Assembly: GCA_963514005.1 (NCBI GenBank)
Contig: OY740791.1
Coordinates: 51,956,001 to 52,020,000, forward strand
Reading direction: 5' to 3'
Length of the DNA stretch: 64,000 bases
Origin: Raja brachyura
Lineage: Eukaryota
Shown here one piece after another: positions 1 to 54,242 of the stretch. The translations under genes were made by a program, and so were the position numbers. Each line of letters opens with the position of its first letter. Position 1 is the stretch's first letter. The notes under the pieces were generated by a model that made no database searches, was not told the origin of the DNA, and saw only the letters and a program-made list of their open reading frames with translations.

Positions 1-212
1 TTCCCAAGAGCATCAGTGACACATAGAATGGTGAAGTTTCAATATTTACCCAGGGGCACGGTTATCCCAGGGGCAATATCCCCAGGCACTGCACCACAGC
101 AGAGCCTTCCACACGGGCTGTGAAGGAAGAGTGAATACTGGCAAATTGTGCAATGTGACATCAAAATGTGATCCTGATTCTAAGTATGAAGAGCAAACCC
201 TGAGTCACTTAC

Positions 213-473
213 CACTGGGTTCCTGATAGTACGGGACTAAAAGCCGGGGCAGGTCTTGATGAAACAAACCGCATCTCCAGTTTCCTCTGCCTCTTTCAGC
301 TTTCTGAATAACCAGACTCAGGGATTTCTCTTCCACAGTCAGTGTCTTTTCTCCAACACTTTTGCCATCGCCATCGATCCAAACCAGTCTCATTGACTCG
401 GTAACGTGAGACACAGAGCAGGTCAGGGTAATGTTGTCTCCCTCATTCACTGCATCAGACGGCTCAGCTGTGA
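213..473 (-). CDS. Gene 1 exon: Ig C2-type domain D4 (WxC type); gene continues beyond the left edge
   Basis: Acceptor tttccacag, donor G|GTAAGT, 261 nt, phase 1-1, open. VTAEPSDAVNEGDNITLTC...LVW...GNWRCGLF: B-strand Cys, C-strand Trp, F-strand WxC. Confidence 0.9.
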
Positions 474-551
474 CTGTGGAAACAAACAGGTTGTTTACAC
501 TTTTAACAATTAATTCATCAGTAAAAACAGTGGCCGCATTCTGTCTCCTAC

Positions 552-893
552 CTTTCACTGTGATTAGATCAATGGTGAGAAATAGATATGTTCCCTCTAA
601 ACATTTGTAAACTCCGGCATCTTGAAACAAAACTGGGACAATTCTCACACTAACATCCTTGCCATTGAAGTGTTTCACTGAGGTCATCAGTCGATTCCTG
701 AAAGTGGCCTTGCTGACATTGATGGGTTGATAGAGTGTTGCTGATGCTATTACTTCCTCCTGGTCTTTTAGGTGACTAAATTTCCAGATCCACACTTCAA
801 AACCCATCTCGTAAGGAAGCCGATAGCAAACCAGCTGGACTTCACTGTGATCTGTGCTGGAGCGGTAAAGTGTGTGACGTTTGCCGTACATGT
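552..893 (-). CDS. Gene 1 exon: Ig V-type domain D3
   Basis: Acceptor tctctgctgtag, donor G|GTAGGA, 342 nt, phase 1-1, open. EVQLVC...WIW...DAGVYKC V-set motifs. Confidence 0.9.
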
Positions 894-1885
894 CTACAGC
901 AGAGAGACAAAAGAATAGAACTCCTTTCAGCATCACAGTTACTGAGGCACAGGGGTAATCAGGTAAAAGTTCCCACACAGATTTTTATTACAATTATTTG
1001 TGTTTTGTTCATCTGATAAGTTTCAAAATGTGACTTCTTGCATGGATTCCACACCATAAACACGTCAGGTTTTTCTAAAAATAACACATATGTCCGGCAC
1101 AATACACATACCAGGCCACCATCTCCCAGACTGTCACTGATCTCATCATCTCTGGCGATCACCCTGCCACAGCCTCCAACCTAATCGTCCACCAGCCCAT
1201 TTATATCTCCTTCTGAAACTCCACAAATAGGGCAGCCCTGGCAGACCCGTTATTTCTGCCTACCCCTTCCCCACATAAATCATTTCTTCCTCTTGTCCAG
1301 TCCCGGAATGGTGAACGTCTTCTGACCATCTCACTCACCCTCATACAGAACCAGCATGCTGCAAACATCAGCCCTACCCCACTCTCTGTCACATTCCTCT
1401 GTCCACCAGCTGCATCCTTCCTCTCTTTGCATCCAATCCCACCCTTCCCTTCATTCCCATAATTCCCTTCACCCCTCTCTCATTCACACCCATTGATTCC
1501 CACCCTTCCTTCTTCCTGGGTCCTGCTCCCAGCTGAATTCTGATCTGAAGCTGGTCTGGAGCAGCTGGAATTACTTCAATCAGAAGAAAAGTCCTGACCC
1601 AAAACATCACCTATTAATGTTTTCCAGTAATGCCCCACCGAGTTACTCTTACTAAACATATAGAATTCATTCTTTCGGTATTGTGTATCTGCCAAACAGA
1701 GATAAACAGGCAGCTGCTCCACAGGGAGACTTTCTGGAAGCTTCTCCCTGAACACTGAAGCATTTTGTACAAGAGAGCTTTTGGCCATGAACTACAATTC
1801 TTCACGGGGTGCACACATGATGTTATAATAAGCACCAATGGTACAAGTGTATGTTCAATATCTAATATGAGGTATTGACACGTAC

Positions 1886-2155
1886 CTGCTATGACATTAA
1901 AATTGCCATTACTTGTCTGAATGATTTTTCCATTTTCCTGCACTTCACAGACATACAGCTTCCCACCCTCCACTGTAACATGTCGGATCATCAGATAGAC
2001 CGTGTTATTCAGGCGGATCTGATCAGTGTTGCTCATGTTCTGCTGGGATGAGTCCATTGGTCTCCAATGAAGACTGACTGTACCTGAGAGTCTGGAGATG
2101 GTGCAGCTGAGTGTGACGTCACTGCCCAGCAGAGGGTGCTGTGGACTTGCCTCAA
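1886..2155 (-). CDS. Gene 1 exon: Ig C2-type domain D2
   Basis: Acceptor tttttcacag, donor G|GTACGT, 270 nt, open. GSDVTLSC...LHW...LYVCEV. Confidence 0.9.
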
Positions 2156-2475
2156 CTGTGAAAATCAGATCAATGAGATTAAGAGAGAGTAGTGGTGTGT
2201 ACAGTCCAATGAATGGGCTCAACCTCACCTCAGCTGAAAACCTAGACATAGAGACTGAAGAACAACTTATTTCCCAGTGGTATCCGACTCTTGAACCAAT
2301 CACCACCTTCACTCACACTTCCTGGTGGTACTGTCACGTGTTCTGGCAGTTATTGCACTTTAGTTTTATTTTGCGTTCATTCAGACAGCTCTGCAAACTC
2401 TGCACCGTTCTGCTGTGTTGCATTTATTGTGTTTATAGTTTCATCCGTCATTAACTTTTACATCATATTAAAATA

Positions 2476-2860
2476 ATGTTTACAAGACAATAAAACACAA
2501 CACAACCCACCACCATAATACAAGACAAACAATAAACTGTTATACAACTATCTTACAATCCTTGTCAAGGATGCATTCAACGCCCCGTGGTGCCCAGCGG
2601 TCCTGGAAATCCCCCAGAGTGTCCATAGTGAGCGCATAGTCCCTCTCCAAGACCACCCAGGCATGGACATAACCGTGGAAAAGCAGCAGGCAGCTGGCTC
2701 GGGCAGAGCCCTCTTCCGCCTAGCGCCGTGACTCGCTGGTGGCCGGCGTGGCCAGGCCAAGGAGAGAAGGTAAAAACTGGCTTTGCGGGGCTGGGAAACT
2801 ATATGGTTGCAGGGTGTGGGAAGCAGACAGCCAGAAGTGATGAAATCAGTAATGGTGTTA
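2476..2860 (-). mobile_element. Tx1/L1-like LINE 3' fragment
   Basis: Minus translation ...LLFHGYVHAWVVLERDYALTMDTLGDFQDRWAPRGVECIL resembles the Tx1 ORF2 C-terminus, followed by a T/G-rich 3' region. Shorter copy at about 56310-56510. Confidence 0.5.
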
Positions 2861-2869
2861 GCGGAGCCG

Positions 2870-4930
2870 GTCCACACCCTCAACAACTTCTCCTTTGACT
2901 CATCTCACTTCCTCCATGTCCAAGGTGTATCTATGGGCATCCGTATTGGCCCCATCTATACCTCCCTCTTTGTTTGGTATATTGAACAATCCCTGTTTCA
3001 GGCATACACTGGCCATATCCCCAAACTCTATCTTCATTATATTGATGCTGCATCATTGCTACCTCCTGCACCCACACAGAACTCATGGACCATCCACTTC
3101 ATCACCAATTTTCATCCTACATTCAAATTTTCTTGGACCATCTCCGACACCTCCTCTCCCTTTCTTGACACCACAGTCTCCATCACAAGAAATACACTTT
3201 TGACTGACGTCAATTATAAACCCACTGACTCCCACAACTATCTCAACTACACTTCTTCCCATCGTGCTTCCTACAAAGACTCTATCCCCTACTCTCAATA
3301 CTTCCTTCTACGCCGCATCTGCGCTCAAGATGAGGTGTTCCATACCACAACATACGAGATGTCCTCATTCTTTAGGCAACGGGGTTCCCCTCTCCCATCA
3401 TTCATGAGGCCCTCACTCGTGTCTCCTCTGTACCCCACAGCTCTGCCCTTGCTCCCCCTCTCCCTAGCCACAACAGAGACAGAGCCCCCCTAGTCCTCAC
3501 CTTACACACCATCAGCCGTCGTACACAACACATAATCCTCCTAAAGTTCCGCCACCACCAACGGGATCTCATCACTAGCCACATTTCCCCGTCTCCACTC
3601 CTTTCTGCCTTCCGCAGAGACTGTTCCCTCTGCAAGTCCCTGGTTATCGCATCCCTTCCCACCTCCTCCCCAGATACCGTCCCCTACAACCGCAGAAGAT
3701 GCAACACCTGTCACTATAACTCCTCCCTTGACTCTGACTAGGGACCCCGACAGTCATTTCAGGTGAGCAGAGGTATTCTTGCACCTCCTCCAACCACATC
3801 CATTGTATCGTTGATCAAGATGTGAAGTCTTTTACATCGGCGAGACCAAAGGCAGACTGGGCGATCATTTAACGGAGCACCATCGCTTAGACCACATGAA
3901 CCAACCCGATCTCCCAGTTGCTGGACACTTCAATTGTCCTACCCATTCCTACGCAGACCTTTCTGTCCTCGTTCTCCTCCATTGTCAGTGTGAAGGGCCT
4001 GTCCTACCAGCATCCGACTCCATGCGATGAGCGCGATCAAACTAGAAGCGGGGGCCGCGCAGAGGTCGGGTGATCCCCTGTACAGGGCCGTTCCCACCAG
4101 CATGCGCCTGCATGTGGCAAGCGCAACCAAACCGGCAGCGAGGGCCGCGCGGTGGTCGGGTGAGTGGCGCAACGCCGCGCAAAGTGAGGCGAACTTGGAG
4201 CGAAGTCTTAAAGTAAGTTCGCCAGGACAGAGAGGGGCACAGAGGCACACATACAGAGGGCCACGGAGCCACACACATAGAGGGTCATGGAGGCACCTAC
4301 AGATAGGTTCACGGAGGCACGATATCGAGCCGGTGTGTCATGCGTTGAGGCGACTGCGAGCCGACAAGCCGTTGCTGCGCGGAATTTTTGAACATAGTCA
4401 GATTTTCGGAGCCCCGCGCGATGTCGGGACGAACTCCGCACAATTCCGCACGGCTCCGGCGATCGAAGTGGGACCGGCCCTGCGACGCCGGACAGCTCAA
4501 GCGACCACGTTAGGTCGCGCTCATCGCACAGTTGCATGCTGGTAGGACAGGCCCTTGAGGCTAATTGCAAATTGGAGGAACAACATCTCATATTTCACTT
4601 GGGCAGCTTACAGCCCAGTGATATGAATATTGGTTTCTCTCACTTCAGGTAGCCCTGCATTCCCTCACTCTCCATCCCTCCCCCACCCTATTCACACTAG
4701 CTTCTCATTTTCACCCTACAAAGAGCTTACAATGGCCTATTTCCTTTATCATCGTCACTTTTTTGTATATCTTTCATTCATTGTTCTTTATCTCTCCACG
4801 TCGCCGTCTATATTTCTCGTTTCCATTATTCCTAACCAGTCTGAAGAAGAAGGATCACAACCCGAAACGTCACCCGTTCCTTCTCTCCAGAGATGCTGCC
4901 TGTCCTGTTGAGTTACTCCAGACACTTTTT
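2870..4930 (+). mobile_element. Degenerate Penelope-like retroelement (RT + GIY-YIG remnants), interrupted by a MITE
   Basis: ORF 2783-3493 gives LNNFSF..QGVSMG..YID..FLD..YKPTDSHNYL (PLE-type RT). Downstream FYIGETKGRLGDH..EH is GIY-YIG-like. Typical tail ctgaagaa..cccgaaacgtcac..gagttactccag. Confidence 0.8.
3994..4555. mobile_element. Non-autonomous DNA transposon (MITE), PIF/Harbinger-like
   Basis: Perfect 20-bp TIRs AGGGCCTGTCCTACCAGCAT (3994-4013; 4536-4555) flanked by a 3-bp TGA duplication. Absent at the paralogous site near 56921. Confidence 0.85.
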
Positions 4931-5450
4931 GTGTCCATTGGCAGTGCTGTGGCTTGCTGGTCACTGTTTAAATGAGGACATTTCTTTTTGTAGCAAGGGA
5001 AGATTGTAATCTTAGTTGCATTATACTGCATTTATTTTTGTAAAGTTTATTATAATAATAAACTATACAATATATTATTTCTATTGACGTCATTATATGG
5101 CTACTAATGATATTATCATTATTTCTATTGTTGTCATTACAAGGCTACAAATGATATAATAATTATTGTATCAGTTATTTCTGAGTTAGTCTTCTCCCAT
5201 TGATTTTGGTTCCTACTGGCAACTGTTGTATTGTGGAATTAATTTGTGGAGCGTATAAAAGTCCCCTGGTGGACATGTTGAGTTACCTGCTACTGCGATT
5301 GTCTGTGATCAAAGAAAAGTGAAGAAACTAACTGTAGCCCCATTATTACCCACAGCCCAGAGTGACTGGAATACTCTCATCAAAACATAGGTTTACACGT
5401 GACATTATTTACAGTGAAACACATTATTGATCCGTGTCTCGCCCACTCAC

Positions 5451-5789
5451 CTTTGATCCCAAATATTTCATATTGTTTCAGGATTTGCTTCATCGGCTGT
5501 GTTTTAGTCAAAGTGAAGAATCCCGCCCATTTAAATGCGTTGTTTTTTATTATCAGATTACAAGTAGTGGCATCCACATCCACCTCCTGGTTCTTGTCTC
5601 TATCTCTCCAGCCATCGCCCCACTGGATGGTCCAATGTTTGTCCACTCTGCTGCCAGTTAACACTGTCTGGATTCCCTGCCCTGAGTGTGGTTCCCATTC
5701 CCAAACAACAATGCCACTCTCAGGATTGTCCGGTCCTTTTAACGTAATGTTGCCTCCATTATCCAAGAAATGAATCAGATTTCTCTTTT
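5451..5789 (-). CDS. Gene 1 exon: N-terminal Ig V-like domain D1 lacking canonical cysteines
   Basis: Acceptor ctttccaacag, donor G|GTGAGT, 339 nt, open. GGNITLKGP...VVWEW...NLIIK...WAGFFTL. Confidence 0.85.
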
Positions 5790-6234
5790 CTGTTGGAAAG
5801 AGGAGCAATGAAAGAATTTAGAACACATTTCCTCCACCCATGTCAGCAATTATTAATTTTGAATTCTATTTATTTCCAGAAAGTTTTGATCTTCCTCAGA
5901 AAAGACCTGAAGTGCTGGAGTAATCAGCGGATCAGGCAGCATCACCGGGGAACACGGATAGGTTACGTTTTGTGTCAGAAGCCTTCATCAGACGCCTGTG
6001 TACCCGAAGGTTCCTTATCTGAAATGTCACTTATCCATATTCACCAGAGGTGCTGTCCGACCTGCTGAGTTACTACAGCACTTTGTGTTTTTCATTCCCT
6101 GTGAAGCATTGACTGAGAAATAGATTGTCGGAAGGTGGATAAGCGAGTTCAGTATTCCGACTGCGCATGCCCAGTTCATAGTTCACTAGCAATAAAGTCG
6201 GAGGTGCTGCATTGTGCGCAGACTTGCGTTTTGT

Positions 6235-6760
6235 CCTTGAGCTGGCGGGGCAGCCCTGGACTTTCAGCCGCTGCCTCCAGTTCGACTCTGCCGGGTTGGT
6301 CAGCAGCCCTCCACCACCACCCCGCTCCCCTTAGTATGACACCGAGATCCTGTTGAAGATGGGCAGCCGCCGGCTGGATGAAGTGGCAGCGGGTACCGTA
6401 GGGGCAGAGCTCAACTCGGCCAGGCCGTGGACGAACTGGCACTTGTCGCCGTAGTGGCCCATCAGGGAGCGGGTTCCTGTGGAGTTGGAGTGGGGTTGGG
6501 CTGGAGTTGGCGCTGGCTGTGGTTCTGTGGGTTCGTTCTGGTAGTGGGCCTGGGGGGCAGAGTCCCGTCAGTCTGGACGTCTCCAGCCGCCCCCCGAGCG
6601 GGGATGGGACATTCGATTGGGGGAGAGTGGTGAGAACGAGGGACGGTCCAGTAGCGGTTATGCAGCGCTTGCATTTTTGCAGCGTTTGTGGTTGCGGGGA
6701 CACGGGTTTGATCCTGGCTGCAAACGAGACGCGGTTCTCCGGATGAGAGCCGGTCCAGTC
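6235..6760 (-). pseudogene. ZFP36/TIS11-family CCCH zinc-finger processed fragment in intron
   Basis: GC-rich island encoding HYGDKCQFVHGLAEL then, frameshifted, LCPYGTRCHFIQ. These match the two TIS11 CCCH fingers with an internal deletion. Confidence 0.7.
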
Positions 6761-7618
6761 TATCCCCCCCCCCCCCCCCCCCCCGGTCTCTAGGGCTTTA
6801 TTTCCTTCGTGTTTCGATAGTTCATTATTCTAGGTAAGGAAATACTGTTTTAAAACTATGTACAAAGATGCAATGTTTTTCTAATTTTTATTGGTTCATG
6901 CCTCCGTGAGTGAGCGAGATCACGAAGATAAATGACACACTTTTTTTTCCTTGAGGGTGGGGGAAATAAAATTAAATGTATGATTTCTATAACTTTCAAT
7001 AGACTTTAAGGAGTTATTTGGACGGATTTAAATTGCTGCAACTACAGCAAGAGCTACAAGTATAGATTTTCTTCCCATATTTTTTAACCCCCTTCTTCGC
7101 TAAAAAAAATATTCAAAGCTTTGACTTTCCATGACATTAAATCTTCCAGCTTCATATCTTGGAACTTTGAATCAGCCATGACAAATAGAAGCTAAAAAAA
7201 AGACAAAAAAATCGGACCAAACGTATACTCACTGTATCTATAGCGCTGAGATCTATTTACTGTTAAAGCTTACGACCTTTGACAAATCCCATGATTCCTT
7301 GCGTTTTTCGGAATACCGAACTAGCTTATTGTCTGAGCTGCAGAAGGGAACTGTGCGGCAGCGTGCAGAATCATTGCGGGTGATTCTTGGGCAGCGAATT
7401 CTGCAACAAGCTGACAGGTCGGAATCTCTCTCTGAGGGGAGGCAGCTGATGGGAGGGGTGCAGAAATGGAGCTCCAACAAGAATGGCATGGATTTGTGAT
7501 GCAGCAGCACATTCAGGGATGTGGAGAGGAAAGTGAGATTGACAATGGGGTGCGGGTTTACAAGGACAATGATAAAGTAAAGCAAGGTGATTGTGACCGG
7601 TGAAGAGAAAGCACTTAC

Positions 7619-7706
7619 TCTGTGTGGAAACAGATCGAAGCAGGAAAAGAAAGACTCCGAACATCAAACCAGTTGGCAAACTGCTGCAGAGAAACCTCGG
7701 CCTCAT
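7619..7706 (-). CDS. Gene 1 leader (signal peptide) exon
   Basis: ATG at 7706, MRPRFLCSSLPTGLMFGVFLFLLRSVSTQ, phase-1 donor A|GTAAGT. Acceptor tttcccacag 12 nt upstream of the ATG implies a non-coding exon 1. Confidence 0.85.
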
Positions 7707-10381
7707 TTTGTGGATTCCCTGTGGGAAATAAAGTGCAGTTTTAGACTTAGCCTGTCCGAGACACATATCTTCAGCACATTTGGACTACAAGTTAATCGGA
7801 CACTGAAGGTGGCAGTACAAGTAGATAGGGTAGAAAATAATGTGTATTGGATGCTTGCTTTCAATACTAAGGCCATTGAACACCAAAGGCAGGAAGTCAT
7901 GATGCAGCTCTATAGGACTGGCAAAGAAAAAAGGAGTTGAACATTTTCCATTTTTTAATGTTTCCATTAAATGTGGACACTTCCAGGCCATCCTGAATTA
8001 CCCTTCAACTGACCCAATTGTGAGTCACTTCAGAGTCACCCACATTATTGTGCCCCATGCCCATGTACAGCACAGATTGTATAAGGACAGCATGTTGTCT
8101 CTCCTTGAGGATGCTGGTGATACAGAGCCAGGATTCTGTTTACTTGTTTCTAAAGACAAACCTTCAAATGCATTATTTTTGTTCTGGTGCTGCCCACTCT
8201 GGGTCAAAGGCTGGATTATGAGAATAGGAACATTGCCCCATGTCCCATACACTGTTACTATGCTGAGGAATAAAACAACGATATGACAAAGAGAGGTCCA
8301 TCTTGGAATGGGGCTGATTGACCCTTTCCAGACTGCAGGATAACGTGCTGAGGGACGCATTGAAGCTTGGTGCAGCCAACTTATAGACTCTGTTAGGGAG
8401 GATCATTGTCTTGAGTCCTTCCGCTGCTGGACGTTGAAGATTCATGGGTCACCCATAGAAGGGAAGGGATATCACCCAAGGGGTGGCAAATGACAGTCAA
8501 TGGTGTATTGTGTAAAGTTAGGTGCAAACACCACTGAGTGTGACACTATTAATCGTATAGACATCAAGAGTGTTTGTGTTAGTTTTGTATAGAAATATGG
8601 AACTGCAGATGCTGGTTTACCAAGGAAAGACATAAAATACTGGAGTAACAGTGTGTCAGGCAGCACTCCTGGAAAACAAGAATAGTTTCGAGTTGGGACC
8701 CTTCAGACTAGTTTCGTATATATTCTTTATTCTGAAATAAAGTTTATTTTTGAAAAATAAAAAAATGTCAGGTTTGAAGGGTGCAAGGATTCTGCCGTTC
8801 CCCATATCACATTCAGAACCTGATGCAAAATTCTGAGAAATGGTCAAGGCTGCATGAAGAGCTGTCTTGCAATTTAACCACAATGATTCGTCTATTCTGG
8901 GCTGTTTCTCTTCCTGATTTTTTATCTCAACTAAATTTCACAATGCGTCAATAAATATCAGAAGTGTGAAGGACAAAGAAAACATCAAACCATCCCAAAA
9001 CCTTATTGAAACATGCAAAAGAGAATTAGGGGTGGATTATTTGTCACTTTGAGCCTGTTTAATCATTCAAAACAATCTCATATTCCAATTTTTTCCTGAT
9101 AGATTTTGATGCATTTTATGTCAAAAAAATCAATCCCCTACTTAACAAGATTCAGTAACCTGCCATCCACCATTTTCTGTGGGGTGAATTTCAATGGCTC
9201 ACCATGTTCACAATGAAGAAATTTCTCAGCCCTAAACTTCTCACCCCTTATCTTGAGTCCAAAACCCCTTCTTCCAGATCCTACAGTCACTGGAAATATC
9301 CTTGTGTATTGGGTCTGTCTAGCTCTGCTTTGAATTTTGTTTAATTTGGAGAGGTCTTGTTTAAGTCTTTCAAACTCCAGTGACTACTGGCTCAGTTACC
9401 CCCTCCTCGCCTTACACATTATTCCTGCCATTCCAGGAATCAGTCTGGTCTGCCTTGGCTGCATTACCTCTGTGGCTGAAAATCCCTTTCTCCGGTAAGG
9501 GGAGCACAAAGACCTGTCTGGGGAAACATGGGCCAGGCGCAGCCAATTGTGATGGGGTCAGTTGGACATCTTGGTCAGCATGTGTATGTTGGGTCGATGT
9601 GTCTATTTCCATGCTGTACAGCTCTCTGACTCTCTGCTGCATCTGTGTATATTTGACAGGTAACTCAACTGACTGAGATCGCCTGGAAACCTCTTTGCAT
9701 CCTCATTGCTTCTCCCATTTACTCTCAGTTTCATGTTATCAAACTTAGAAACATTAAAATTGTTTCCTTGTCAATACCATTGATGAACATTGAAAGTCAT
9801 TCTTCAGTTGCGAATGGTCATCTGTTCATTTACTTCCACAGAGGATTCCTGATCAGTAAATTCCCTCCAGCAATTTGCTCTTTGCTCATGTTTCCAGAAT
9901 CTGCAAACCATTGGGTCTCCACATCTTCAACTTTATCTATTCTACATGGTACAACACAATAATCTCTAATAGATCTGTTTGCCATGATTTTGCTTACATA
10001 AATTCAAAAAGACTTTGTCTTATCGCATAAATTATTGTTAAATATCCAAACACTGTTTTGCAACCCGGAAACACCAAACCAGGTTGGAGATTGAAACATT
10101 TTCATCCAGCAGGTAGCAAACAGGAAATTTAATATGTCAAAAAGAATAAAGAGCCGTCATTTAGTTGAAACACGGCTATTTTAATTTTTAATCAGTAGGA
10201 AATAGCAAAAATATGAAAAAAACACAATTTTTCGTTAACCCCAACAATGCAATAGGAGAAGACATTTAAAAATAAAATTTGAAGAAGTACATCAATTTAG
10301 CAAATTACATTGTCAATCATTTAATCCCGTCCAATTAATCCACTTTAAAGCAATGAAGAATAATATTTGAAGTTTACTGAC

Positions 10382-10664: not shown

Positions 10665-11334
10665 TTGATCATATCTGATGGATTTCTAATGGGAGAGCTC
10701 CAGGTGCTTTGTTGCGTTCTGCTGGGTGTGTGAAGTAATGAGTGGCTAAGAGAGAGTACAAGCAGTCCAGGGAGGTCCTGCCACTGTGATGAAAAACTCA
10801 CACTGCTACATCCATGAGGTGTTGTGTTCATTAACATGCTGGCAATTACATCGCACCCATTGGGACAAACTGAACCATTTCCAGAGAGGATTGGGGACAC
10901 TGTGTGGGAGCACCTTCAACAAAAGGATTGCAGAACATCAAGAAGGCAGCTCACCATCACCTTCTCTTAGGCAGTTAGTGATGGATGTTAAAATATTAAT
11001 TTTACTTCGGAGTCACGTGAGTGACTACGTGAAGAACCCCGTACAGCCGTTCGTGCGTCATTGCGTCAGACGTTTTTCGTGCAGACGACTGTGGAGCAGC
11101 GCAGCTCCTCCATGGTAAGTCTAAAAAAGTTGCAGGTAAGTGTTATTTTTCTTACCTGTTCTAGGTCTCTGCAGGAACCTCCGGGGTTTTTTGCAGTGGA
11201 TGTTCGCGATAGCTGAAGAGGGAACCAGCCGAGGGCTTTGGGGGAAAACCTTGGTCCGACCGCAGAAGCGGAGAGCTGGGAAAGTCAGGTTCGCGATCGG
11301 AGTCACTGATAACGCGGTCAGTGACTCCACACGT

Positions 11335-11825
11335 TGGGTTCCCGGGTAGGGGAAACCCAAGAATAGTGCGGTTTTAGACCGCAGTAGTCCCTAGGGGATG
11401 GGGCTTAACGGACCTGAACGGTCTGCCTGGGTTCCCGGGGAGGATAAACTCAAGCATATGCGGTTCTAGACCGCAGTAGTCCCGGGGACATTGGGTAAAA
11501 CTAGCTTAAATGGTTAAGCTGGGTTCCCGGTGCAGGGGAAACCCAAATATATGCGGTTTATATCGCAGTAGTCCCCAGCGCATGGGGTTAAAACAAACCT
11601 AAAGGTTAGGCTGGGTTCCCGGTGCAGGGGAAACCCAGGTATATGTGTGGTTCCCAGACCACAGTAGTCCCCAGGTAATGGGGTTAATTCACATAAATCA
11701 TTAGCCTGCGTGCCATGAGGGTACCGTGGGTATATATTTATATATATTATATTTATATGGATTCCTGGTGAGGGGAAATTCACCTATGGGGTTCTCAAAC
11801 TACAATAATCCCCAGGATATGGGGA
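11335..11825 (+). repeat. About 92-bp tandem repeat (4 full copies + 1 degenerate) of multi-hairpin units inside the DIRS element
   Basis: Units start at 11335, 11428, 11520, 11612 and about 11758 with TGGGTTCCC...GGAAACCCA...TGCGGT...ACCGCAGTAGTCCC. Confidence 0.85.
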
Positions 11826-11892
11826 CAACTGACAAAATAGTCAGTACAATTGGGAAAGTTGGGAGATTTCACCTCTAGGAATTAATTTAGAG

Positions 11893-12402
11893 AGCAGCAC
11901 TTTTGGGTAGGGCTGCTTCATGGGAATGTCAAGTTATGGCAGTGCCAGCCTATGGGAAAGGCTGTGTCAGCAGTACCTTTGTTTAGGACTGCTAATGGGG
12001 ATGCCAAGCTATGGTAGGCTAGCCTGATGGAGAGGCTGTGCCAGCAGTACCTTTGCTCAGGACTGCTCATGGGGATGCCAAGCTATGGCAGGCTAGCCTA
12101 TTAGAGAGGCTGTGCCAGCAGCACCTTTGCTCAGGGCTGCTCATGGGGATACCAAACTATGGCAGGCTAGCCTATTGCAGAGGCGGTGCCAGCAGTACCT
12201 TTGCTCAGGACTGCTCTAAGGGAATGCCAAGTTATGGTAGGCTAGCCTATTGGAGAGGTTATGCCAGCAGCACCTTTGCTCAGGGCTGCTTGATGAGAAT
12301 GCCAAATCTATGGCAAATACTGGGCTATGGGAAAGTCCGGGCCAGCAGCTACTTTGTTCAGGGCTGCTTCATGGGCACCAGGGGTACCTTGTTAGGGCTG
12401 CT
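11893..12402 (+). repeat. About 74-76-bp tandem repeat (about 7 copies) of triple-hairpin units inside the DIRS element
   Basis: Units start at 11893, 11969, 12043, 12117, 12191, 12266 and 12344: AGCAGYACCTTTGCTCAGGRCTGCT...TGCCAAGCTATGGCA...AGCCT..AGGCT. Confidence 0.9.
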
Positions 12403-15400
12403 TTATGGGAATAGCAGTTTAGTAGGGTATTCCCATTCACAGTGATCATGGGGGATGAGGAGGCATTGTTAGGATAAGGCAATATAACAGAATGATGACA
12501 AAAGTATTCAAAGAAAACTATACACAGTTTAAAAGCGCTTGTGCTAAAATCCGCTGTCTAGTCTCAAAATATATTTGAGAAATTGGGCTCCTCTATCCAG
12601 TTAGATTAAGTCCTATCAAATAGATTTGTAGGATGTTGGGATTTACTTTTAGGTATTCAATTGGCCATGATGCCGGCCTAGGCAACAGATTGCAGTCAAT
12701 AAGACTTTGGTAACAGTTGTTGGTATAAAACAGTTCTAGTCGTTGGACTAATTGTTAAGTGCATAGATGCAATTCAGGTGTGTAAGTAGTGCAACAGTTA
12801 TTTTGTTAAATGGTTAATTAGTAAGTGCCATCTAGGTCATTGTTAACACCAGCTGAAATTAATAATGTCACGATGATGGACAAACAGTGTTCATTACTGC
12901 TCTAGTAGTTGTTAGGTAAACCTTTTGTTCTATTGCAAATTGGTGCTAATGGCCTAAATGGGAAATGGTGTCAGCAGGGCTTTGTAGCAGGCCTGCTTTA
13001 TGGCTCCCTCATGTAAGAGGTGAGCATGTGGGATTGGTATAGTTTAACGCCGAGTCTGAGGGTATAGCCATAGAGCATGCCCAAGAGATCGGGGCATGTG
13101 CCAGAGGTCTATGCCTGGCAAGAAAGTTACCATCCCAAACACAATATGCAGTGAACACCGCTCTGAGGGGGACATTACAGTTGGCTGCCGAATCCTCTAT
13201 TCAGGTAAGACTTTTCCATAGGTGTAACCTGGAGGGCGAAGCACAAGCTATTGGAACAAGCAAGGTTTCATAGTTTTGGCAACAATGCATCCCATGTATT
13301 TTTTGGCAGTAGCGGTTCACTGAAGTTGCTGGCAGCATGAAAGCTGGCCAGAGGTTCCACGCACTGGACTTGTGCTACTCTACAATTAAGGGACCACTTG
13401 CAGTTTGGTAAGGTGTATACTTAGTTATACAGTACAAATGATTGAGACATTATCAGCTACTTTGAACGGTAAATGTAAAATGTACAATATTGGTTTTCAA
13501 GCAGGTTAGAATTGGACAGGTTCAGTATAAGGACCAAGATTGTCTTGCTAGACTGGCTTGGAAATCGGGCCACAGTTGCTATTTAAGGTAGTTACCAAGT
13601 AGCTGAAAGATCATCTCGAGTTTGGAGATGGAACAGATTTGCATGACTTGCCCAAAAAGTTCTGTTATTAGTATCAACTATTTATAGACTCTACGGGCAT
13701 TGTATGGGCTATAGAGTGATTGGACAAATAAGCATATTGTCATGCTCAGGTTGATGCATTGTGTTGGCATATGTTAGTCACGAGGGTGCAATCGGTTAAA
13801 GAATCACTGGAATGGTTACATAATTTTGTTGCCATAGGAGAATCATCAAGTGTGGGTAATGGCAACACAGTTGGTGTTGAATCGCACTGTATTATGAAAT
13901 TCTGGTTCAATGGAACACCTGATATGAATATATGTATATGTGTATACATATGTATGTTGGTTTCATGTTTATTTCACTGGTTGCAAAATAGTTGGCATAG
14001 CAGTGGCAAAAGATACATTCTCGCCAAAAGGAGCAGGTGGGTCTTTTATGGCTACCTCCATTTTATCTCATCAATCGAGGTTTCAAATAAAGTCATTAAG
14101 AGGCTTTAAGTTCCTATTGTGTGATTATGCAAATTGATTCCTGATTTGTTGCGAATAATTATATAACCTTATTGGTTATTTTAAACTTGAATTTGCTTGT
14201 TCAGCCTGAGGTTTCGGAAATCAGATGTTGCATGATAAACTCAAATTTATGTTCTGCAGGTCTAACAAACTGTCCTAAGGTTTGGGTTGTTACATCTATC
14301 CTTCTATGTGTTCAAAGTGTTTGCATAGCACCAAACGGCTGAATTTCTTTTCCAGGAGATGAAAGAGTTTGTTATGCTTATGTTCCATGGAAAATGGTAT
14401 TGATTGCTAATGTTTCGAGTTCATGCTAAATGATTGTCTGTTACTTATGGAGTTATACGGCCATTAATTGACTCGATGAGCTTCCTCATTGAATTGGCTG
14501 TAACAAACAAGACTCGCTGTCGGGTCCACACCGGTTATCAAGGGGTAGGATATCTTCAACATAGGTCCCAGGACCAGTATAATGCCATATGCGATGTTGA
14601 TATTTGTGAACACTATTTCACCAGGAGGCAGCAACTATATCCTTAAATTTGGCTGGAGTTTATTAGGTAGTTATCCTTCTGGCACTGGTTTAGTGCAGCA
14701 GGTTCAGTCGCTAAATAATTGTGATGGTACAGGATGATAATGTCTATAAATTATAATATATAATATGTTATAAATACTTGAGCAGACCAGAAGGGGGTCA
14801 GGTCTCAAAATAGTCACAGGCATACCAGGGGACCTTTGATAAGGTAAGCACACATGTATACAACAATATGTCAAGGTCATCAAGAGCCTTGGAGTTCTGG
14901 ACTAGCAATGTTGTTGGTCACAAAGAATTTGGGAGAACGTATTGTTCATGGCATTCCAGATGAGGAAAACGGAGTTGTGTTATGTACTAATGGATTCTGT
15001 TTCCAGATCTCATTCCACCAGGGCTGCTACAACATCAGCAGCAAGGGTATTTATGTTCCGCTGGGTCGCATTGTTGCGGCTGGAGTATGGTCCATCGAAT
15101 GAATCTCCAAACATCTGTAATGACCCATTGGTGAACCAGGAGTATTGTTAACTCTATTTATGTTCTGGTTATATGTTCCATCTGGGTGAGAGATGGAAAT
15201 ATTATTGTTTCATTTAAACAGCATCAGCATGTTTTACATCTCTGTTATGACTGTATGCATTATGAATGTTTTCCCTTCATTTGTCAATGAAGCAGCTGTG
15301 GTTGTGTATACTCATTTCACACGGCATGAAATCACAGAGCTTTGAAGTCTTCACGTAGTCACTCGCGTGACTCCGAAGTAAAATAGTAAGATTAAACGAG

Positions 15401-16147
15401 AACTTACCAGTTTGAAGTTTGATCTTTATTTTATGAGGAGTCGAGGGACTACGTGCCCTCCGCTCCCAGCCCTCATAGATTTCATCTGGTAGTTCTAGTC
15501 TTTATCTTACATTATACTTCAGTTATTATTTGCTGTGATTTCACACCTTTGCTTTGAAGATTGACGCACGAACGGCTGTACGGGGTTCTTCACGTAGTCC
15601 CTCAACTCGACTCCTCATAAAAATAAAGATCAAACTTCAAACTGGTAAGTTCTCGTTTAATCTTACTATTATCTGCCACAATTTATTCCAATCACTGACA
15701 ATGACACTTGAGCTGATCTGTCTGTTAGTTATTATCCTTATAATAAATGCATCCTCAGCACACATGCCCCATGTTCTGTTCTCAAAGTATTTTTTAAATT
15801 ACATAAATAAACTGATAGGGAATTACTTTTACTGTTAATGTAAAGGGTAAATAGAGAAGTTGTTTCTGTAGATAACGTCAGCGTAAAAGAGGAAGGATCT
15901 GCTTTAGGCCTTGTTTACATTTCTGCTGTGAAACTCGGCAAGTGTCACTGGTGATCACAGTGTTTAGAATGTGAGAGTGATGGACAGTGTTGTATGGAGG
16001 GGGAGATGAATTATGAAGAGATAGATTCAGGAGCTGCGTAAAAATATCAAAACAGAGTGTTAGCAGCAATAAAAATGAATTGTATTTCTCTCCAGAATTC
16101 ACACAATATGGGGGAATTGAGTCGTTAACCTTGATTAAGGAAGGAGT

Positions 16148-17572
16148 CTGATTAGATTATTTGATGAGGAAGGCACTAACTCCATGAAACAGTTACCCCT
16201 CACATTCCTATAAAATCTTTCCACCTTCACCTTATACCTATGCCCTCTCGTTCTTAATTGAGGATGTGACAAGTAAAATGGATGTAGTGTATCTAGACTT
16301 TCAGAAAGTCTTTGATAAAGTCCCACACAGGAGAATGGTGACTAAAATTAGAGCACATAGTATTGGGGGTAGGGTGTTGATATGTATAGAAAATTGGTTG
16401 GCAGACAGGAAGCAAAGAGTAGGGTGAATGGGTCCTTTTCAGAATGGCAGGCAATGGCGAGTGGAGTGCCACAAGGCTCAGTGATGGGGCCACAACTGTT
16501 TACCATGTGAATCAATGCTTTGGAAGAGGAAATTAGGAGCAAAACTAGCAAGTTTGCAGATGGCACAAAGCTGGGTGGCAGTGTGAACTGTGAAGAGGAT
16601 GTTAGGAGGTTGCAGGGTGACCTGGACAGGTTGAGTGAGTGGGCAGATGTGTGGCAGATGCAGTATAATACAGATAAATGTGAGGTTATCCACTTTGGTG
16701 GCAAAAACAAGGGAGCAGATTATTATCTCAATGGGGTTAGGTTAGGTAAGGGGGAGGTACAGGAAGACTTGGGTGTCCTTGTACACCGGTCCCGGAAAGT
16801 TGGTGTGCAGGTACAGCAGGCAGTGAAGAAAGCTAATGGAATGTTGGCCATCATAACAAGAGGATTTCAGTATAGGAGTAAAGAGGTTCTTCTGCAGTTG
16901 TATCGGGCTCTGATAAGACCACATCTGGAGTATTGCATACAGTTTTGGTCTCCCAATTTGAGGAAGGACATCCTTGTGATTGAGGCAGTGCAGCGTTGGT
17001 TCACAAGATTGATCCCTGGGATGGGGGGACTGTCATATAAGGAAAGATTGAAAAGACTAGGCTTGTATTCACTGGAGTTTAGAAGGATGAGGGGGCATCT
17101 TATAGAACCAATAAAATTATAAAAGGACTGGATAAGCTGGATGCAGGAAAAATGTTCCCAATGTTGGGTGAGTCCAGAACCAGGGGTCACCGTCTTAGAA
17201 TAAAGGGGAGGCCATTTAAGACTGAGGTGAGAATAAAACTTTTTCACCCAGAGAGTTGTGAATTTGTGGAATTCCCTGCCACAGAGGGCAGTGGAGGCCA
17301 AATCACTGGATGTTTTTAAGAGAGAGTTGGATAGAGCTCTAGGGGCTAATGGAATCAAGGGATATGGGGAGAATGGCCGAATGGCCTCCTCCTGCACCTA
17401 TTTTCTATGTTTCTATGTTTCTACGTGAATTCCCCCACTGTGGACAAGAGACTCTATGCATCTACGGGCACGGGTTATTGATTGGGGATGATCAGCCATG
17501 ATCGCAATGAATGGCGGTGCTGGCTCGAACGGCCAAATGGCCTCCTCCTGCGCCTATTTTCTATGTTTCTAT
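16148..17572 (+). mobile_element. CR1 LINE, 5'-truncated (RT C-terminus, 3' UTR, duplicated tail)
   Basis: YLDFQK..FDKVPH, SKFADGTKLGG..., LYRALIRPHLEYCIQFWSP. (TTTCTATG)n tails at about 17402-17423 and 17558-17572. Confidence 0.9.
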
Positions 17573-40309: not shown

Positions 40310-40690
40310 CTACTCCTGTAGTAACTGAAGGCTGCTTTTGGTCCTTGTGAAATCTGCAGTTCGAATTTTGTTTGGAAATGTCCGTAATATAAATTATTTA
40401 CTATAGTCAAGGTACAACTATGGTACCGGATGTGAGATTAGGCAGATGTGAAGCCTATTGAAAAAATAATCACTGAAATCATCAAACCTGGAATTGTGTG
40501 CAGTGGAAAAGTTCAGATTCACATGTAGAGATCTCACCCAAGAGAACAATAAACATAAATTTAATCACCTTTTAAAGTGAATGATTGTGTATAAGAACCC
40601 TTTAAAAATAGTTAATTCAGCAATTATTTTTCATTGTTAAATTGACATGTAACATACAGTATGCATGTAGTTTATTGTTTGGCACTGATT

Positions 40691-43600
40691 TCAGTGTGAT
40701 GCTTGCAGTATGTGGGAGGTCAAGGACACTGGTGGTCCCTGTGGCTGCTACAAATGTGAGAAGTGCTTCCAGGTACAGCTCCTGAAGGACCGTGTTGGGG
40801 AACTGGAGAAGCAAGTGGATGACCTCAGGTTCGTCCGAGAAACTGAGTTGTTCCTCGACGAGTCCTACAATGAGAATGCTACACCTAAGGTACTGGAAGA
40901 GAGAAAGTGGGCGACGGTGAGAAAAGGAGGGAAACGTGGAAGGCAAAGGTCCCCGGGTGTTGTACCTCTTGTGAACAGTTTCACCCACTTAGAAGTTGTC
41001 GGGACAGAAGACGTTAAAACACTGTGCAGCAGACTGGCTTGTGAAGCAAAAAGGGCTGTTGAGCCAAAACCAAAGAGGCCAACGTCAGGCAACGCCATTG
41101 TAGTTGGAGACTCCATTGTGAGAGGTACGGACAGGGGTATCTGCGGTAACAAAAGGGATTCGAGGATGTTTTGCTGCCTTCCTGGTGCCAGGATCCAGGA
41201 TGTCACGGACAGAGTGCAGAAAATCCTCAAGGACGAAGGTGAACAGCCAGAAGTGGTAGTGCATGTTGGCACAAATGATGTCGGAAAGAAGGGGATCACT
41301 ATTCTGCACTGTGACTTTAGAGAGCTCGGAAAAATGCTGAAAAGCAGGACCTCCAGGGTTGGTATCTCCGGTTTGCTTCCAGTTCCTCGTGCTGGCGAGA
41401 GCAGGAACAGGGAGATACGGGACATGAATGTGTGGCTTACTAACTGGTGCAGGGGGCCGGATCTTAGATCACGGGGATTTGTTTTGGAGTAAGGGGGAAC
41501 TGTCCAAAAGGGACGGATTGCATCTTAACTGGTGGGGGACCGGCATTCTGGCAGGCAGGTTTGCCACTGCTACACGGATGGTTTTAAACTGAATAAGGGG
41601 GGTGGGGTGTCAAATGAGATAGTTGAGGATGGAGTTAAAGGGAAAGCGAGTAAAGGGAGGGTTAATTACCCCAGAATTAACGGGAAAGAAAGCTCACAAA
41701 GGGATAGGAGAATATGGCCAAGTGTAATAGGGATCGATGTGAAAGGTTAGATGCGTAAGGAATTAAAAGTATTGTATATGAATGCGCGAAGTATAAGAAG
41801 TAAAGTAGATGAGCTTGAGGCTCAGTTAGCGGTTGGTGGATGTGACATTGTCAAGTCAAGTCACGTATATTTATATAGCAATTTAAAAAACAACTCTCGT
41901 TGACCAAAGTGCTTGACATTTGTTATAAGAGTAGTATACACAAGCAGGCTACATACATATATACAAATACCCCTCACTCAGAGGACGTCAGGAAAGGCTT
42001 GGGAGAACAGATACGTTTCTAGACTAGACTTAAAGGGGTCGATGGAGGGGGCAGTTCTAATGGGGAGGGGGATGCTGTTCCACATTCTAGGAGCTGTGAC
42101 CACAAAGGCGTGGTCGCCCCTGAGCTTATGCCTAGACTGCGGGACATTCAGCAGCCCCAAGTCGGCCGATCTGAGGGACCTGGAGGTGGTGTAGTGGGTG
42201 AGAAGACTTTTAATGTAGGTGGGTGCAAGCCCATTGAGGGCTTTGTTGACAAAGAGGAGGGTCTTGAAATTCATTCGGAACCACACAGGGAGCCAGTGGA
42301 GAGAGGCCAGGATCAGGGTGATATGGTCCCTTTTACGGGTGCCCGTCAGGAGTCTCGCTGCGGCGTTTTGGACCAGTTGCAGGCTGGACAGGGTAGATTG
42401 GCTGATGCCAGTGTAAAGGGAATTGCAGTAATCTAGGCGGGAGGAGATAAATGTATTGTGGGGATTACTGAGACGTGGCTACAGGAGGATCGGGCCTGGG
42501 AACTTAATATTCAGGGTTATACATCCTATAGAAAGGACAGGCAGGTGGGCAGAGGAGGGGGTGTAGCTCTGCTGGTGAGGGATGGAATTCAGTCCCTTGC
42601 AAGGGAAGACATACGGACTGATGAGGTAGAGTCACTGTGGATTGAGTTGAGGAATTGTACAGGCAAGAAGACACTAATTGGTGTTATTTACAGACCCCAA
42701 AATAGTAGCCTGGATGTAGGGTGTAAGTTGCAGCAGGAGTTAAAACTGGCATGTAACAAAGGTAATGCCACTGTGGTGATAGGGGATTTCAATATGCAGT
42801 TAGTCTGGGAAAATCAGGTTGGTTCAGGACCCCAAGAAAGGGAGTTTGTAGAATGCCTCCGAGATGGATTCTTAGAGCAGCTTGTAATGGAGCAGACCAG
42901 AGAAAAGGCAATTCTGGATTTAGTGTTGTCCAATGAACCAGATATGACAAGAGAACTCAAGGCAAAGGATCCGCTTAGAGGCAGTGATCTCAATATGATT
43001 AGTTTTAATCTGCAATTTGAGAAGGAGAAAGTTAAATCAGAAGTGGCAGTGATACAGTTGAACAAAGGGGACTATGAAGGCATGAGGGAGGAGCTGGCCA
43101 AAGTAGACTGGAAAGGGATCATAGCAGAAATGACGGTGGAACAGCAATGGCAGGAATTTCTGGGCATAATCTGGAAGACGCAGGATAATTTCATTCCAAA
43201 AAGGAAGAAAGATTCTAAGGGGATTAGGAGGCAACCGTGGCTGACAAGAGAGGTTAGTGATAGAATAAAGCTAAAAGAAAAGATGTATAACACAGCAAAG
43301 AGTAGCCGGAAGCCAGAAGATTGGGAAACTTTCATAGGACATCAGAAGGAAACAAAACGGGCTGAAAAGATGAAGTATGAATGGAAGCTGGCCAGGAATA
43401 TAAAGAAGGACAGTAAAAGCTTCTTTAGATATGTTAAGTGAAAAAGAGTACCCAAAGTCAAATGTGGGTCCCATGAAGGCAGACACGGGTGAAATAATTA
43501 TGGGCAACAAGGAAATGGCAGAAGAGTTGAATAGGTACTTCGGATCTGTCTTCACTAAGGAGGACACAAACAATCTCCCAGATGTACTGGAGGACAGAAG

Positions 43601-45269
43601 ATCTAAGGGGGTAGAGGAACTGAAATAAATTTTCATTAGGCGAGAAATAATATTGGGTAGGCTAATGGGACTGAAGGATGTTAAATCCCCTGGGCCTGAT
43701 GGTCTGCATCCCAGGGTCCTCAGGGAGGTGGCTCTAGAAATAGTGGATGCATTGGTGATTATTTTCCACTGTTCAATAGATTCAGGATCAGTTCCTGTGG
43801 ATTGGAGAATAGCTAATGTTATCCCACTTTTCAAGATAGGAGCGAGAGAGAAAACAGGGAATTACAGACCAGTTAGCCTGAGTTCGGTGGTGGGAAAGAT
43901 GCTGGAGTCAATTATTAAAGAGGTAATAATGGAGCATTTGGATAGCAGTAAAAGGATTAGTCCAAGTCAACATGGATTTATGAAAGGGAAATCACGCTTG
44001 ACTAATCTTCTGGAATTTTTTGAGGATGTGAATAGTAAAATGGATGAAGGGGTGCCAGCGGATGTAGTGTATCTAGACTTTCAGAAAGCCTTGATAAGGT
44101 CCCGCACGGGAGACTGGTGGCTAAAATTAGAGCTCATGGTATTTGGGGTAGGGTGTTGACGTGAATAGAAAATTGGTTGGCAGACTGGAAGCAAAGAGTA
44201 GGAGTGAAGGGCCCTTTTTAGAATGGCAGGCAGTGGCGAGGGGAGTGCAGCAAGGCTCGGTGTTGGGGCCGCAACTGTTTACCATAAATATTAATGATTT
44301 GGAAGAGGGAATTAGGAGCAACACTAGCAAGTTTGTGGTTGACACAAAACTGGGTGACAGTGTGAACTGTGAAGAGGATGTTTGGAGGTTGCAGGGTGAC
44401 CTGGACAGGTTGAGTGAGTGGGCAGATGCATGGCAGATGCAGTATAATATAGATAAATGCGAGGTTATCCACTTTTGCGGCAAAAACAAGGGGGCAGATT
44501 ATTATCTCAAAGGGGTTAGGTTAGGTAAGGGGGAGGTACAGCGAGACCTGAGGGTCCTTGTGCACCGGTCACTGAAAGTTGGCGTGCAGGTACAGCTGGC
44601 AGTGAAGAAAGCTAATGGAATGTTGCCCTTCATAACAAGAGGATTTCAGTACAGGAGTAAAGAGGTTTTTCTGCAGTTGTATAGGGCTCTGGTAAGAGCT
44701 CATCTGGAGTATTGTGTACAGATTTGGTCTCCTAATTTGAGGAAGGACATCCTTGTGATTGAGGCAGTGTGGCGTAGGTTCACAAGATTGATCCCTGGAA
44801 TGGTGGACCTGTCATATGAGGAAAGAGTGAAAAGACTAGGCTTGTATTCACTGGAGTTTAGAAGGATGAGGGGGAATCTTATAGAAACATATAAAATTAT
44901 AAAAGGACTGGACAAGCTAGATGCAGGAAAAATTTTCCCAATTTTGGGTGAGTCCAGAACCAGGGGGCTGCAGTCTTAGAATAAAGGGGAGGTCATTTAA
45001 GACTGAAGTGAGAAAAATCTTTTTTACCCAGAGAGTTGTGAATTAATGAAATTCCCTGCCACTGAGGGCAGCGGAGGCCAAATCACTGGATGGATTTAAG
45101 AGAGAGTTGGATAGAGCTTTACGGGCTAATGGAATCAAGGGATATGAGGAGAAGGCAGGCATGGGTTATTGATAGCGGACGATGAGCCATGATCACAATG
45201 AATGGTGGTGCTGGCTCGAAGGGCGGAATGGCCATCTCCTGCACCTATTTTCTATGTTTCTATGTTTCT
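40691..45269 (+). mobile_element. Near full-length CR1 LINE (ORF1 zinc finger + SGNH esterase; ORF2 APE + RT), frameshifted
   Basis: ORF1 CxxC, VVGDSIVR, HVGTND. ORF2 ITETWL, GDFN, SPGPDG, NYRPVSL, QHGF, YLDF. (TTTCTATG)n tail. Absent in gene 2. Confidence 0.92.
41852..42454 (-). mobile_element. L2-like LINE 3' fragment nested in the CR1
   Basis: FKTLLFVNKALNGLAPTYI..RSLRS..AFVVTAPRMWNSIP..FKSSLETYLF. (TTGAC)n tail, ATTGT on both flanks. Confidence 0.8.
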
Positions 45270-50442: not shown

Positions 50443-50662
50443 CACCGGCTGGGTCACTGTGTGACAGCAGTCTCACCGGCTGGGTCACTGTGTGACAGCA
50501 GCCTCACCGGCTGGGTCACTGTGTGACAGCAGCCTCACCGGCTGGGTCACTGTGTGACAGCGGTCTCACCGGCTGGGTCACTGTGTGACAGCAGTCTCAC
50601 CGGCTGGGTCACTGTGTGACAGCAGCCTCACCGGCTGGGTCACTGTGTGACAGCAGCCTCAC
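50443..50662 (+). repeat. 31-bp minisatellite x7
   Basis: CACCGGCTGGGTCACTGTGTGACAGCAGYCT head-to-tail, no spacers. Confidence 0.95.
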
Positions 50663-52428: not shown

Positions 52429-53903
52429 TTATGAATGTGTGAATTCAGATTATTGAACATATGGTTTGGGGGAAGAGTTTGAGAGGAGCTCAGACAAATG
52501 ATGGTGTGGGGAGATTGTATGGACATTTCATAGTCTCCCAGATTATTCAAACCTTTAATGAGAAAAGTGGAGGGAGGGCTTGGTAACCCAACATTGACCA
52601 ATGAAGAAGGGGCAGAGGAGGGCAGGTTTATTTGCAAACAACCAGCAGCCATGACCAATCATCGATGGCAACAGGAGACAGAAGGTGATGACAGAGAGTT
52701 GTTTTTGCACCTGGATGCCTGTTACTGACGGTGACTAATGGTGTCCCACAATGATTGGTCCTGGGACCTTGTTGTGTCTAATCTACACAAATTTCTTAGC
52801 AGTGGATTTGGGAGGCAAGATTAGTGAAGTTGTTGATAGTGTGGACAGTGGTCTTATTCTGCAGAGAGATGTCAATGTGTTGGTGGAATATGCTGGGAAA
52901 TGAAAGATGGATCTTAATCCAGTCATTTGTGAGGTGATGTGCCTCCCCTTTATTCTAAGGCTGTGGCCCCTGGTTTTGGACATATACCATGAATTATAAG
53001 GTCTGACAAAGTATTGAGGAACAGAGGGACATTGGAGTACATACATTGATCCTTGAACGTGAAAACACAAGTACATAATGTGGTTGGAAAGGCATATGGG
53101 ATAGTGTGTTCATCAGTCAGGACATTGATCACAGAAGTAGGGAAGTTATGCGGCAGATGTGTAAACTTTGGTCAGGCCTCAGCTGGAGTACTGTATGCAG
53201 TCTGGTCACCAAATGATGGGAAGAATGTGATAGCACTGGAGAAGGTATAGAGAAGATGGACAGGATGCTACCTGGGTTGGAGCTAATGAGTTCTGAGAAG
53301 AGATTAAAGAAGCAACATTCATTCTCCCTGGAGTTGAACTCCCTGGAGTTGAGGGGACATTATTGACATGTATAACTGGTCAACATGGGTGAAATGGGTA
53401 AGTGGCCCATTCCAATGCTGCATGATTCTATGTTTGCACAGTTTGTAACACCACAGGTGGCAGGACTGCTTATGTAAACAGCGTTCCCCATCCAGGTATC
53501 CTGAACACTCCAGGGTCCAGCTGTGCTCAGGGTGAGGAGGACCTGTGAGATGGTCTCTCTGTGTTCAGTATCAGTCAGTATGGGATGATGGACAGTGGGC
53601 AGTGAATCTGGCAGCGGAATTGGTCCACGGTTCAATGGAAAGGTCCTGTTTTGCTGACAGGACCCAATGCTTATCCCAGCTCTGTCACTTTCCCAAGAGC
53701 ATCAGTGACACATAGAAAGGTGAAGTTTCAATCTTCACCCAGGGGCACGGTTATCCCACGGTCCATATTCCCAAGCACTGCACCACAGCAGAGCCTTCCA
53801 CACGGGCCGTGAAGGAAGAGTGAATACTGGCAAATAGTGCAATAAGTGACATCAAAATGTGATCCTGATTCTAAGTATGAAGAGCAAACCCTGAGTCACT
53901 TAC

Positions 53904-54164
53904 CAGTGGGTTCCTGATAGTACGGGACTAAAAGCCGGGGCAGGTCTTGATGAAACAAACCACATCTCCAGTTCCCTCTGCCCCTCTCAGCTTTCTGAAT
54001 AACCAGACTCAGGGATTTCTCTTCCACAGTCAGTGTCTTTTCTCCAACACTTTTGCCATCACCATTGATCCAAACCAGTCTCATTGACTCGGTACCGTGA
54101 GACACAGAGCAGGTCAGGGTAATGTTGTCTCCCTCAGTCACTGCATCAGACGGCTCAGCTGTGA
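53904..54164 (-). CDS. Gene 3 exon D4, C2-type (WxC)
   Basis: 261 nt, phase 1-1, open; paralog of 213-473. Confidence 0.9.
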
Positions 54165-54242
54165 CTGTGGAAACAAGCAGGTTGTTTACACTTTTAACAA
54201 TTAATTCATCAGTAAAAACAGTGGCCGCATTCTGTCTCCTAC

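Follow-up and report, generated by a model that had tools for sequence, protein, structure and literature searches.

The stretch of Raja brachyura DNA analyzed here, a window of 64,000 nucleotides, carries a tandem array at 11893..12435 that the initial annotation described as structured RNA with strict covariation. This locus raises the question of what kind of element hosts the array and whether its stems are kept because they work as RNA. Both Tandem Repeats Finder and a covariance model place the array (array 2 hereafter) at this position, and we conclude that it is a real RNA structure, probably under selection, within a known kind of element.

Outside this element, the window contains a ∼10-kb segmental duplication (1-10106 and 53690-63899, 85-97% identity) in a cluster of immunoglobulin-domain exons (V-set, C-type), of which further diverged copies lie near 22-27 kb and 45-48 kb. 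Positions 40689-44979 hold a broken LINE in which esterase-like, endonuclease, and RT domains are recognizable, and LINE 3′ fragments are found at 16280-17373 (90%) and 32455-33093. A separate 31-nt tandem array (50443-50662, 7.1 copies, 97% matches) resembles a short dispersed repeat of the window.

Array 2 lies within a non-autonomous DIRS1-type retroelement of 4,672 bp (10999..15670, + strand) with ATT at both ends and no target-site duplication. The left terminus (10999..11060) includes an ITR part (11018-11060) that is 98% complementary to 15562-15604, and the right ITR together with the right extension occupies 15562..15670. Within the internal complementary region (ICR, 15348..15455), residues 15348-15384 complement the 5′ end (36/37) and residues 15382-15432 the 3′ end (51/51), so that the two halves overlap on AAT, the 3-bp circular junction. 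These termini match the DIRS1 definition (ITRs, ICR, and junction) in the available text of PMC3266345 and confirm the DIRS context proposed earlier for the array.

The interior of the element (12450..15340, + strand) is decayed, and each sense frame contains 32-40 stops in 738 codons. Judging by resemblances to short motifs, it presumably represents the remains of the end of gag, of pol, and of the tyrosine recombinase. No significant match to gag, RT/RH/MT, or tyrosine recombinase was obtained with Pfam, PHROGs, PDB, protein searches, or Atlas, and two protein-search matches to interior fragments proved to be unrelated repeats. Because coding ORFs are not detectable, we class the element as a non-autonomous derivative and not as an autonomous DIRS1. 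Identity with a LARD was rejected, as the termini are inverted and direct LTRs with PBS and PPT are absent. No tRNA was found, and a bacterial promoter scan, whose model is unsuited to an animal genome, returned none. The patterns of array and terminus gave no match in metagenomes or prokaryote genomes and a single viral match (L001) sharing ∼22 nt.

The element is a dispersed family of many near-identical copies with a common non-coding interior. It is present in 20 of the 22 public sequencing runs listed, and at least half of its words occur in 17 of them (8 organism labels, 9 studies). Four runs, including X1, X14, and X19, were compared in detail at the level of contigs, with 40 of 625 variant rows covered; none of the runs with the element is on record as RNA, which speaks neither for nor against transcription, the RNA labels of two runs are guesses, and the best-matching run may be the source of the window itself. 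In X1, the interior bins reach 88,798-280,761 versus 97-786 in the flank bins, an about 1,000-fold excess in depth that is not a copy number, and the array bins are as deep as the rest of the interior. At the two ends, 235 and 80 contigs of this run enter unlike flanks (some of them from other families that share these ends), loose ends fall at 10999 and 15672, and a single contig represents an empty site, in which one flank passes directly into the other (joint 10986->15683). Over the arrays and the interior, contigs of X14 show 3-8 differing letters in 427-991 nt (∼99% identical), and X19 exhibits many fixed differences, with both arrays still covered. The dead interior and both arrays are thus traits of the family, because other copies in X1, X14, and X19 carry them; this also settles the earlier question of whether the arrays occur in other DIRS copies.

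Retention of the arrays is no specific sign of function, because the dead ORFs are kept at the same depth. The deletions seen all have about single-locus depth, and one X1 contig skips both arrays. In the sample that includes X14, this run contains 56% of the words and the sister runs X21 and X22 contain none, so that a high-copy repeat may have been carried over into X14 at a low level. In all four runs, 10999-11039 and 15322-15670 are far deeper than the interior (about 10-30 times in X1), and other sequences in X1 diverge after 11039. More abundant families may therefore have these ends in common, and a helper may be among them.

Array 2 consists of six full units of 74-78 nt and two partial ones, and an outlier follows 540 nt downstream. 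The full units (11893..12343, + strand) start at 11893, 11969, 12043, 12117, 12191, and 12266 and are 76, 74, 74, 74, 75, and 78 nt long; Tandem Repeats Finder reports a period of 74 with 6.4 copies (11893-12375). Each full unit comprises three predicted hairpins followed by a purine-rich linker, and RNAalifold likewise returns three hairpins per unit. The covariance model, built on the six full units, recovers all six, matches unit 7 partially (12344-12421, E 5e-7), and finds the outlier (12973-13056, E 6e-4), whereas E values of at least 1.4 apply to the remaining 11 of its 19 matches. The end of the array (12344..12436, + strand) is formed by unit 7, which consists of stem 1 and the linker, by a partial unit 8 (12384-12418), and by a 9-bp terminal inverted repeat. 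This terminal pair, ATGGGAATA/TATTCCCAT (12405-12413/12428-12436), is present as the initial annotation had it, but its 5′ arm is merely the unit linker and pairs in context with a probability of ≤0.08. Periodicity near 74 revealed no residual units in 12440-12960.

Pair 6-20 of stem 1 is C:G in units 1, 4, 6, and 7 and T:A in units 2, 3, and 5, with 0/7 mismatches, as previously described, and the outlier adds a third pair type (G:C). However, columns 33/42, which lie outside every predicted helix, exhibit a complementary 3/3 split that is just as strict. Because these unpaired columns associate as strictly as pair 6-20, whose two sites sit 14 nt apart, the pair counts as one event, which bears out the earlier caveat that the stem-1 covariation might trace to a single event spread by duplication. 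The 6-20 and 33/42 splits cannot fit one tree, indicating that the units exchanged segments. The other variants described before were also recovered: stem 2 varies mostly through G-U (two of three changes, in unit 1 and in units 2 and 5, the third being A-C in unit 4), and stem 3 of unit 6 is replaced by CTGGGCT/AGTCCGG.

Structure-preserving evolution is instead supported by the whole set of changes. When each distinct change was counted once and re-placed among columns of the same base, 9 pair states were kept and 2 broken across all stems, compared with 6.8 broken expected (P 0.0002). Removal of pair 6-20 raises P to 0.0009, that of unit 6 to 0.01, and that of both to 0.05, and a structure taken from unit 3 alone gives 10 kept and 4 broken (P 0.0005). 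Across the stems of array 2, six G-U states face one A-C state, pair 56-74 shows C-G, U-G, and U-A, a two-step path, and stems change less than loops (14/42 versus 21/32, P 0.03). Both broken pairs are located in unit 4; at 12151, the pairing base makes up all of the X19 depth and 8% of that of X1, although units can cross-map. The changes are thus non-random with respect to pairing, and random substitution in arrays unique to this copy, the outcome named beforehand as refuting the structure, was not what we found. Pairing is preserved beyond chance to a degree that is suggestive, not decisive, because the structures were inferred from the few sequences under test and the shuffle control takes no account of relatedness. 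Because mutations mostly keep the stems paired, the array likely works as folded RNA.

The same pattern might partly arise without any function. Hairpin-promoted slippage of a polymerase or reverse transcriptase, combined with tandem duplication, template switching, and exchange between units, could leave the array as a neutral by-product, the main alternative to our reading, which we consider doubtful but worth serious weight. Template switching can create and maintain hairpins (bioRxiv 10.1101/2021.04.15.439925, in part) and would make or repair stems in one step. Features that resemble such products are the perfect 9-bp stem derived from a linker, the double changes clustered in unit 6, and the 10-12-nt palindrome of units 2-5; the incompatible partitions show that exchange occurred, and the dead ORFs ride along too. 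Template switching gives Watson-Crick pairs, however, and not the 6:1 preference of G-U over A-C (judged against base-type-matched nulls), and the neutral account is further opposed by the slower change of stems relative to loops and by the same pattern in the unrelated array 1.

Array 1 (11335..11856, + strand) consists of five 92-104-nt units with 3-4 hairpins each and folds better (z −5.0) than array 2. Double-sided changes affect 3 of its 18 pairs, and 0/500 shuffles reach the score of the array. The two arrays are unrelated, as stated in the initial annotation (alignment P 0.75 and 0.21). In unit 4 of array 1 (11640-11658), both CpGs of one paired step are changed in complementary direction. 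Upstream of array 1 lies a non-repetitive, hairpin-rich leader (11150..11334, + strand; 150-nt window z −2.8 at 11201) that contains a perfect 11-bp stem at about 11299-11328.

Rodent L1 5′ UTRs carry tandem promoter monomers, and the arrays might by analogy be promoter or enhancer monomers acting at the DNA level, with incidental hairpins. Their position just inside the left terminus would suit this role, as would the leader with its CpG o/e of 0.92 and the distribution of GGGAA (13 in the leader versus 1 in the interior). Array 2 itself is almost CpG-free (o/e 0.05), though, the motif excess is not significant when corrected for motif choice (P 0.07-0.67), and the compensated pairs are left unexplained, which makes such monomers highly improbable.

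As a whole, array 2 folds with a z of −2.1 on the + strand and −4.1 on the − strand (40 shuffles), a modest predicted excess on the former. Single units fold at z −0.4 to −2.0, units 1 and 4 favoring a different fold. In context, most units form stem 1. When the pairing span is unlimited, stem 1 alone remains stable, and inter-unit pairing displaces stems 2-3 of units 1-5, whose pair probabilities fall below 0.1. A perfect 10-12-nt palindrome linking stem 2 to stem 3 is confined to units 2-5 (12016-12249) and permits pairing between units, and a second palindrome of 12 nt is found at 12986. A function as dimer-initiation site is not supported by cofolding: the 10-12-nt palindrome is present in 4/6 units, but homodimer energies are no better than those of shuffles in 6/6, so that there is no excess dimer stability.

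The strand difference bears on the idea that the selected structure serves another role in cis, such as protection or export of the transcript, a block to ribosome scanning that spares RNA for packaging, or a function at the single-stranded cDNA stage. This idea draws on the same pairing evidence, on the resemblance of the outlier to a frameshift-type hairpin, and, for the cDNA stage, on the − strand z and on the single-stranded nature of DIRS cDNA (available text of PMC7192593). The bias of G-U over A-C indicates the + strand, however, and in folds of minus-strand DNA stems 2-3 are lost in several units, which speaks against the cDNA stage; overall, we judge these other roles rather improbable.

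Two further explanations concern what the units may encode. The array sits where gag would be, and it could be the remnant of a 25-codon coding repeat of an ancestral gag. The initial annotation argued against coding from the 74-nt period; the period is confirmed, but the argument is weak because 2/6 unit lengths are multiples of 3 (units 5 and 6, with 75 and 78 nt), and a 140-codon open frame spans 12023-12445. Against such a remnant, frames rotate between units and carry stops, the change is pair-preserving, there is no Pfam match, and 462 candidates include no protein relative of the array ORF, the last being weak evidence. We therefore regard a coding origin as very remote.

The array could also be a tandem set of self-cleaving ribozymes, similar to retrozymes, since hammerheads are reported from non-autonomous retroelements (PMC4918198) and a core word of hammerhead type is found upstream of the array, at 11213. 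Rfam, however, yields no ribozyme family at E up to 5-10, its matches being hairpins or lncRNAs below threshold; none of the core words is repeated in the units of array 2, and the hairpins are arranged in series rather than around a junction. With no conserved catalytic core per unit, self-cleavage finds no support, and its probability is close to negligible. Hammerhead-like core words occur at 11213, 11244, and 11254 (11206-11263), with C at 11217 in all four runs. The candidate at 11213 was rejected, as stem II would close on G.G, stem I is 5/7 paired, z is 0.2, and Rfam gives no match.

The outlying unit (12949..13010, + strand) is diverged but keeps stem 1, and its local alignment has a P value of 0.002. 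It is preceded by the heptamer GGGAAAT (12960-12966) and a 6-nt spacer, after which the hairpin starts at 12973, with an in-hairpin stop in one frame; the −1 frame at this position resembles what we take to be the start of pol. The window contains, over its two strands, 417 such heptamers; a hairpin this stable follows 4 of these, including 2 within the element, a pattern noticed post hoc. GGGAAAG is found 8 nt upstream of stem 1 in units 1 and 6. From its sequence, the outlier may serve −1 frameshifting where gag presumably met pol, and array 2 may derive from it. Our search found no literature joining DIRS and slippery sites.

We tentatively favor, with somewhat less than even confidence, the reading that array 2 acts as folded sense RNA and aids recognition or packaging of the transcript by Gag borrowed from intact relatives. 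The array forms part of a 1.3-kb predicted chain of hairpins at the 5′ end of the element, which would be transcribed from the left terminus and copied in trans. A ∼75-nt module, related to the hairpin that lies at 12973 close to where pol presumably begins, would have been duplicated in tandem, and exchange would have homogenized the units and spread single compensated pairs. Pairing would be kept since the sense RNA is recognized by its shape. Copies that retained hairpins flanking purine-rich single strands would spread better, because a larger number of binding sites would give them the advantage in competing for helper Gag.

According to the available text of PMC7192593, the RT of DIRS elements works in trans and the ICR is indispensable, and a non-coding family with intact ends can therefore plausibly spread on helper proteins. 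The Gag-capture step, likely by analogy, draws on the 5′ packaging regions of Ty1, whose signals lie within the 5′ 580 nt (PMC4974528, in part), and of MMTV, whose Gag binds single-stranded, looped purines (PMC8096270, in part). In contrast, Dictyostelium DIRS-1 without ORF1 is still reverse transcribed in trans (PMC7192593, same text), which counts against a leader that captures Gag, as do the weaker z on the + strand and the displacement of stems 2-3. A bolder form of our reading, which we consider unlikely, is that the gag region was replaced by tandem structure-selected RNA modules, one of them a copy of a frameshift-type hairpin that lay at the former gag-pol junction, to give a multivalent Gag-capture signal.

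If true, it would add to the ICR the first further cis RNA element defined in a DIRS and would hint at expression of pol by −1 frameshifting in vertebrate DIRS. The available text of PMC7192593 states that the priming of DIRS RNA for reverse transcription is unknown, and the term packaging is absent from it. A successful family without coding capacity should keep only the parts needed in cis; its structured leader therefore offers a natural guide to candidate signals, and hundreds of copies allow a tree-aware covariation test. Should the neutral explanation hold, the array is an ordinary repeat inside a transposon.

Internal tandem repeats are known from other retroelements, among them Dasheng, with internal 89-90-bp repeats, and TOC1 of Chlamydomonas, with split direct repeats and, toward its left end, an internal array in which 76-bp repeats follow one another in tandem. 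To our knowledge, no structural covariation has been reported for the TOC1 array. The split direct repeats of TOC1 differ from the inverted termini found here. TOC1 is likewise a non-autonomous DIRS-order element (PMC9940879, in part). LARDs (including Dasheng), TRIMs, and SIRE, a non-autonomous VIPER (PMC6681497), resemble our element as large non-coding retroelements moved in trans, and a structure-only packaging signal has been proposed for the interiors of LARDs and TRIMs (PMC4558846, PMC9033089; available parts of all three sources). Unlike our element, LARDs and TRIMs possess LTRs, PBS, and PPT, whereas SIRE is short and without an array. The 5′ cis region of Ty1 and the psi of MMTV are, in the texts cited above, likewise structured 5′ RNAs with purine-rich single strands at a matching position, but they are single-copy and established by experiment, whereas the signal here is multiplied, predicted, and without excess dimer stability.

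Close relatives are the DIRS1-like elements, which share the same ITRs, an ICR complementary to both ends, the 3-bp junction, and the lack of a target-site duplication (PMC3266345 and PMC7192593, available text). In contrast to these, the element described here has no gag, RT/RH/MT, or YR detectable by our tools, and carries two hairpin arrays in its 5′ part. A search by title and the start of abstracts, with Repbase and most subscription papers outside its reach, found no report of hairpin arrays in DIRS elements, and the accessible parts of PMC9210276, PMC8557442, and PMC2685390 hold nothing further on arrays. Non-autonomous DIRS-order elements are already known.
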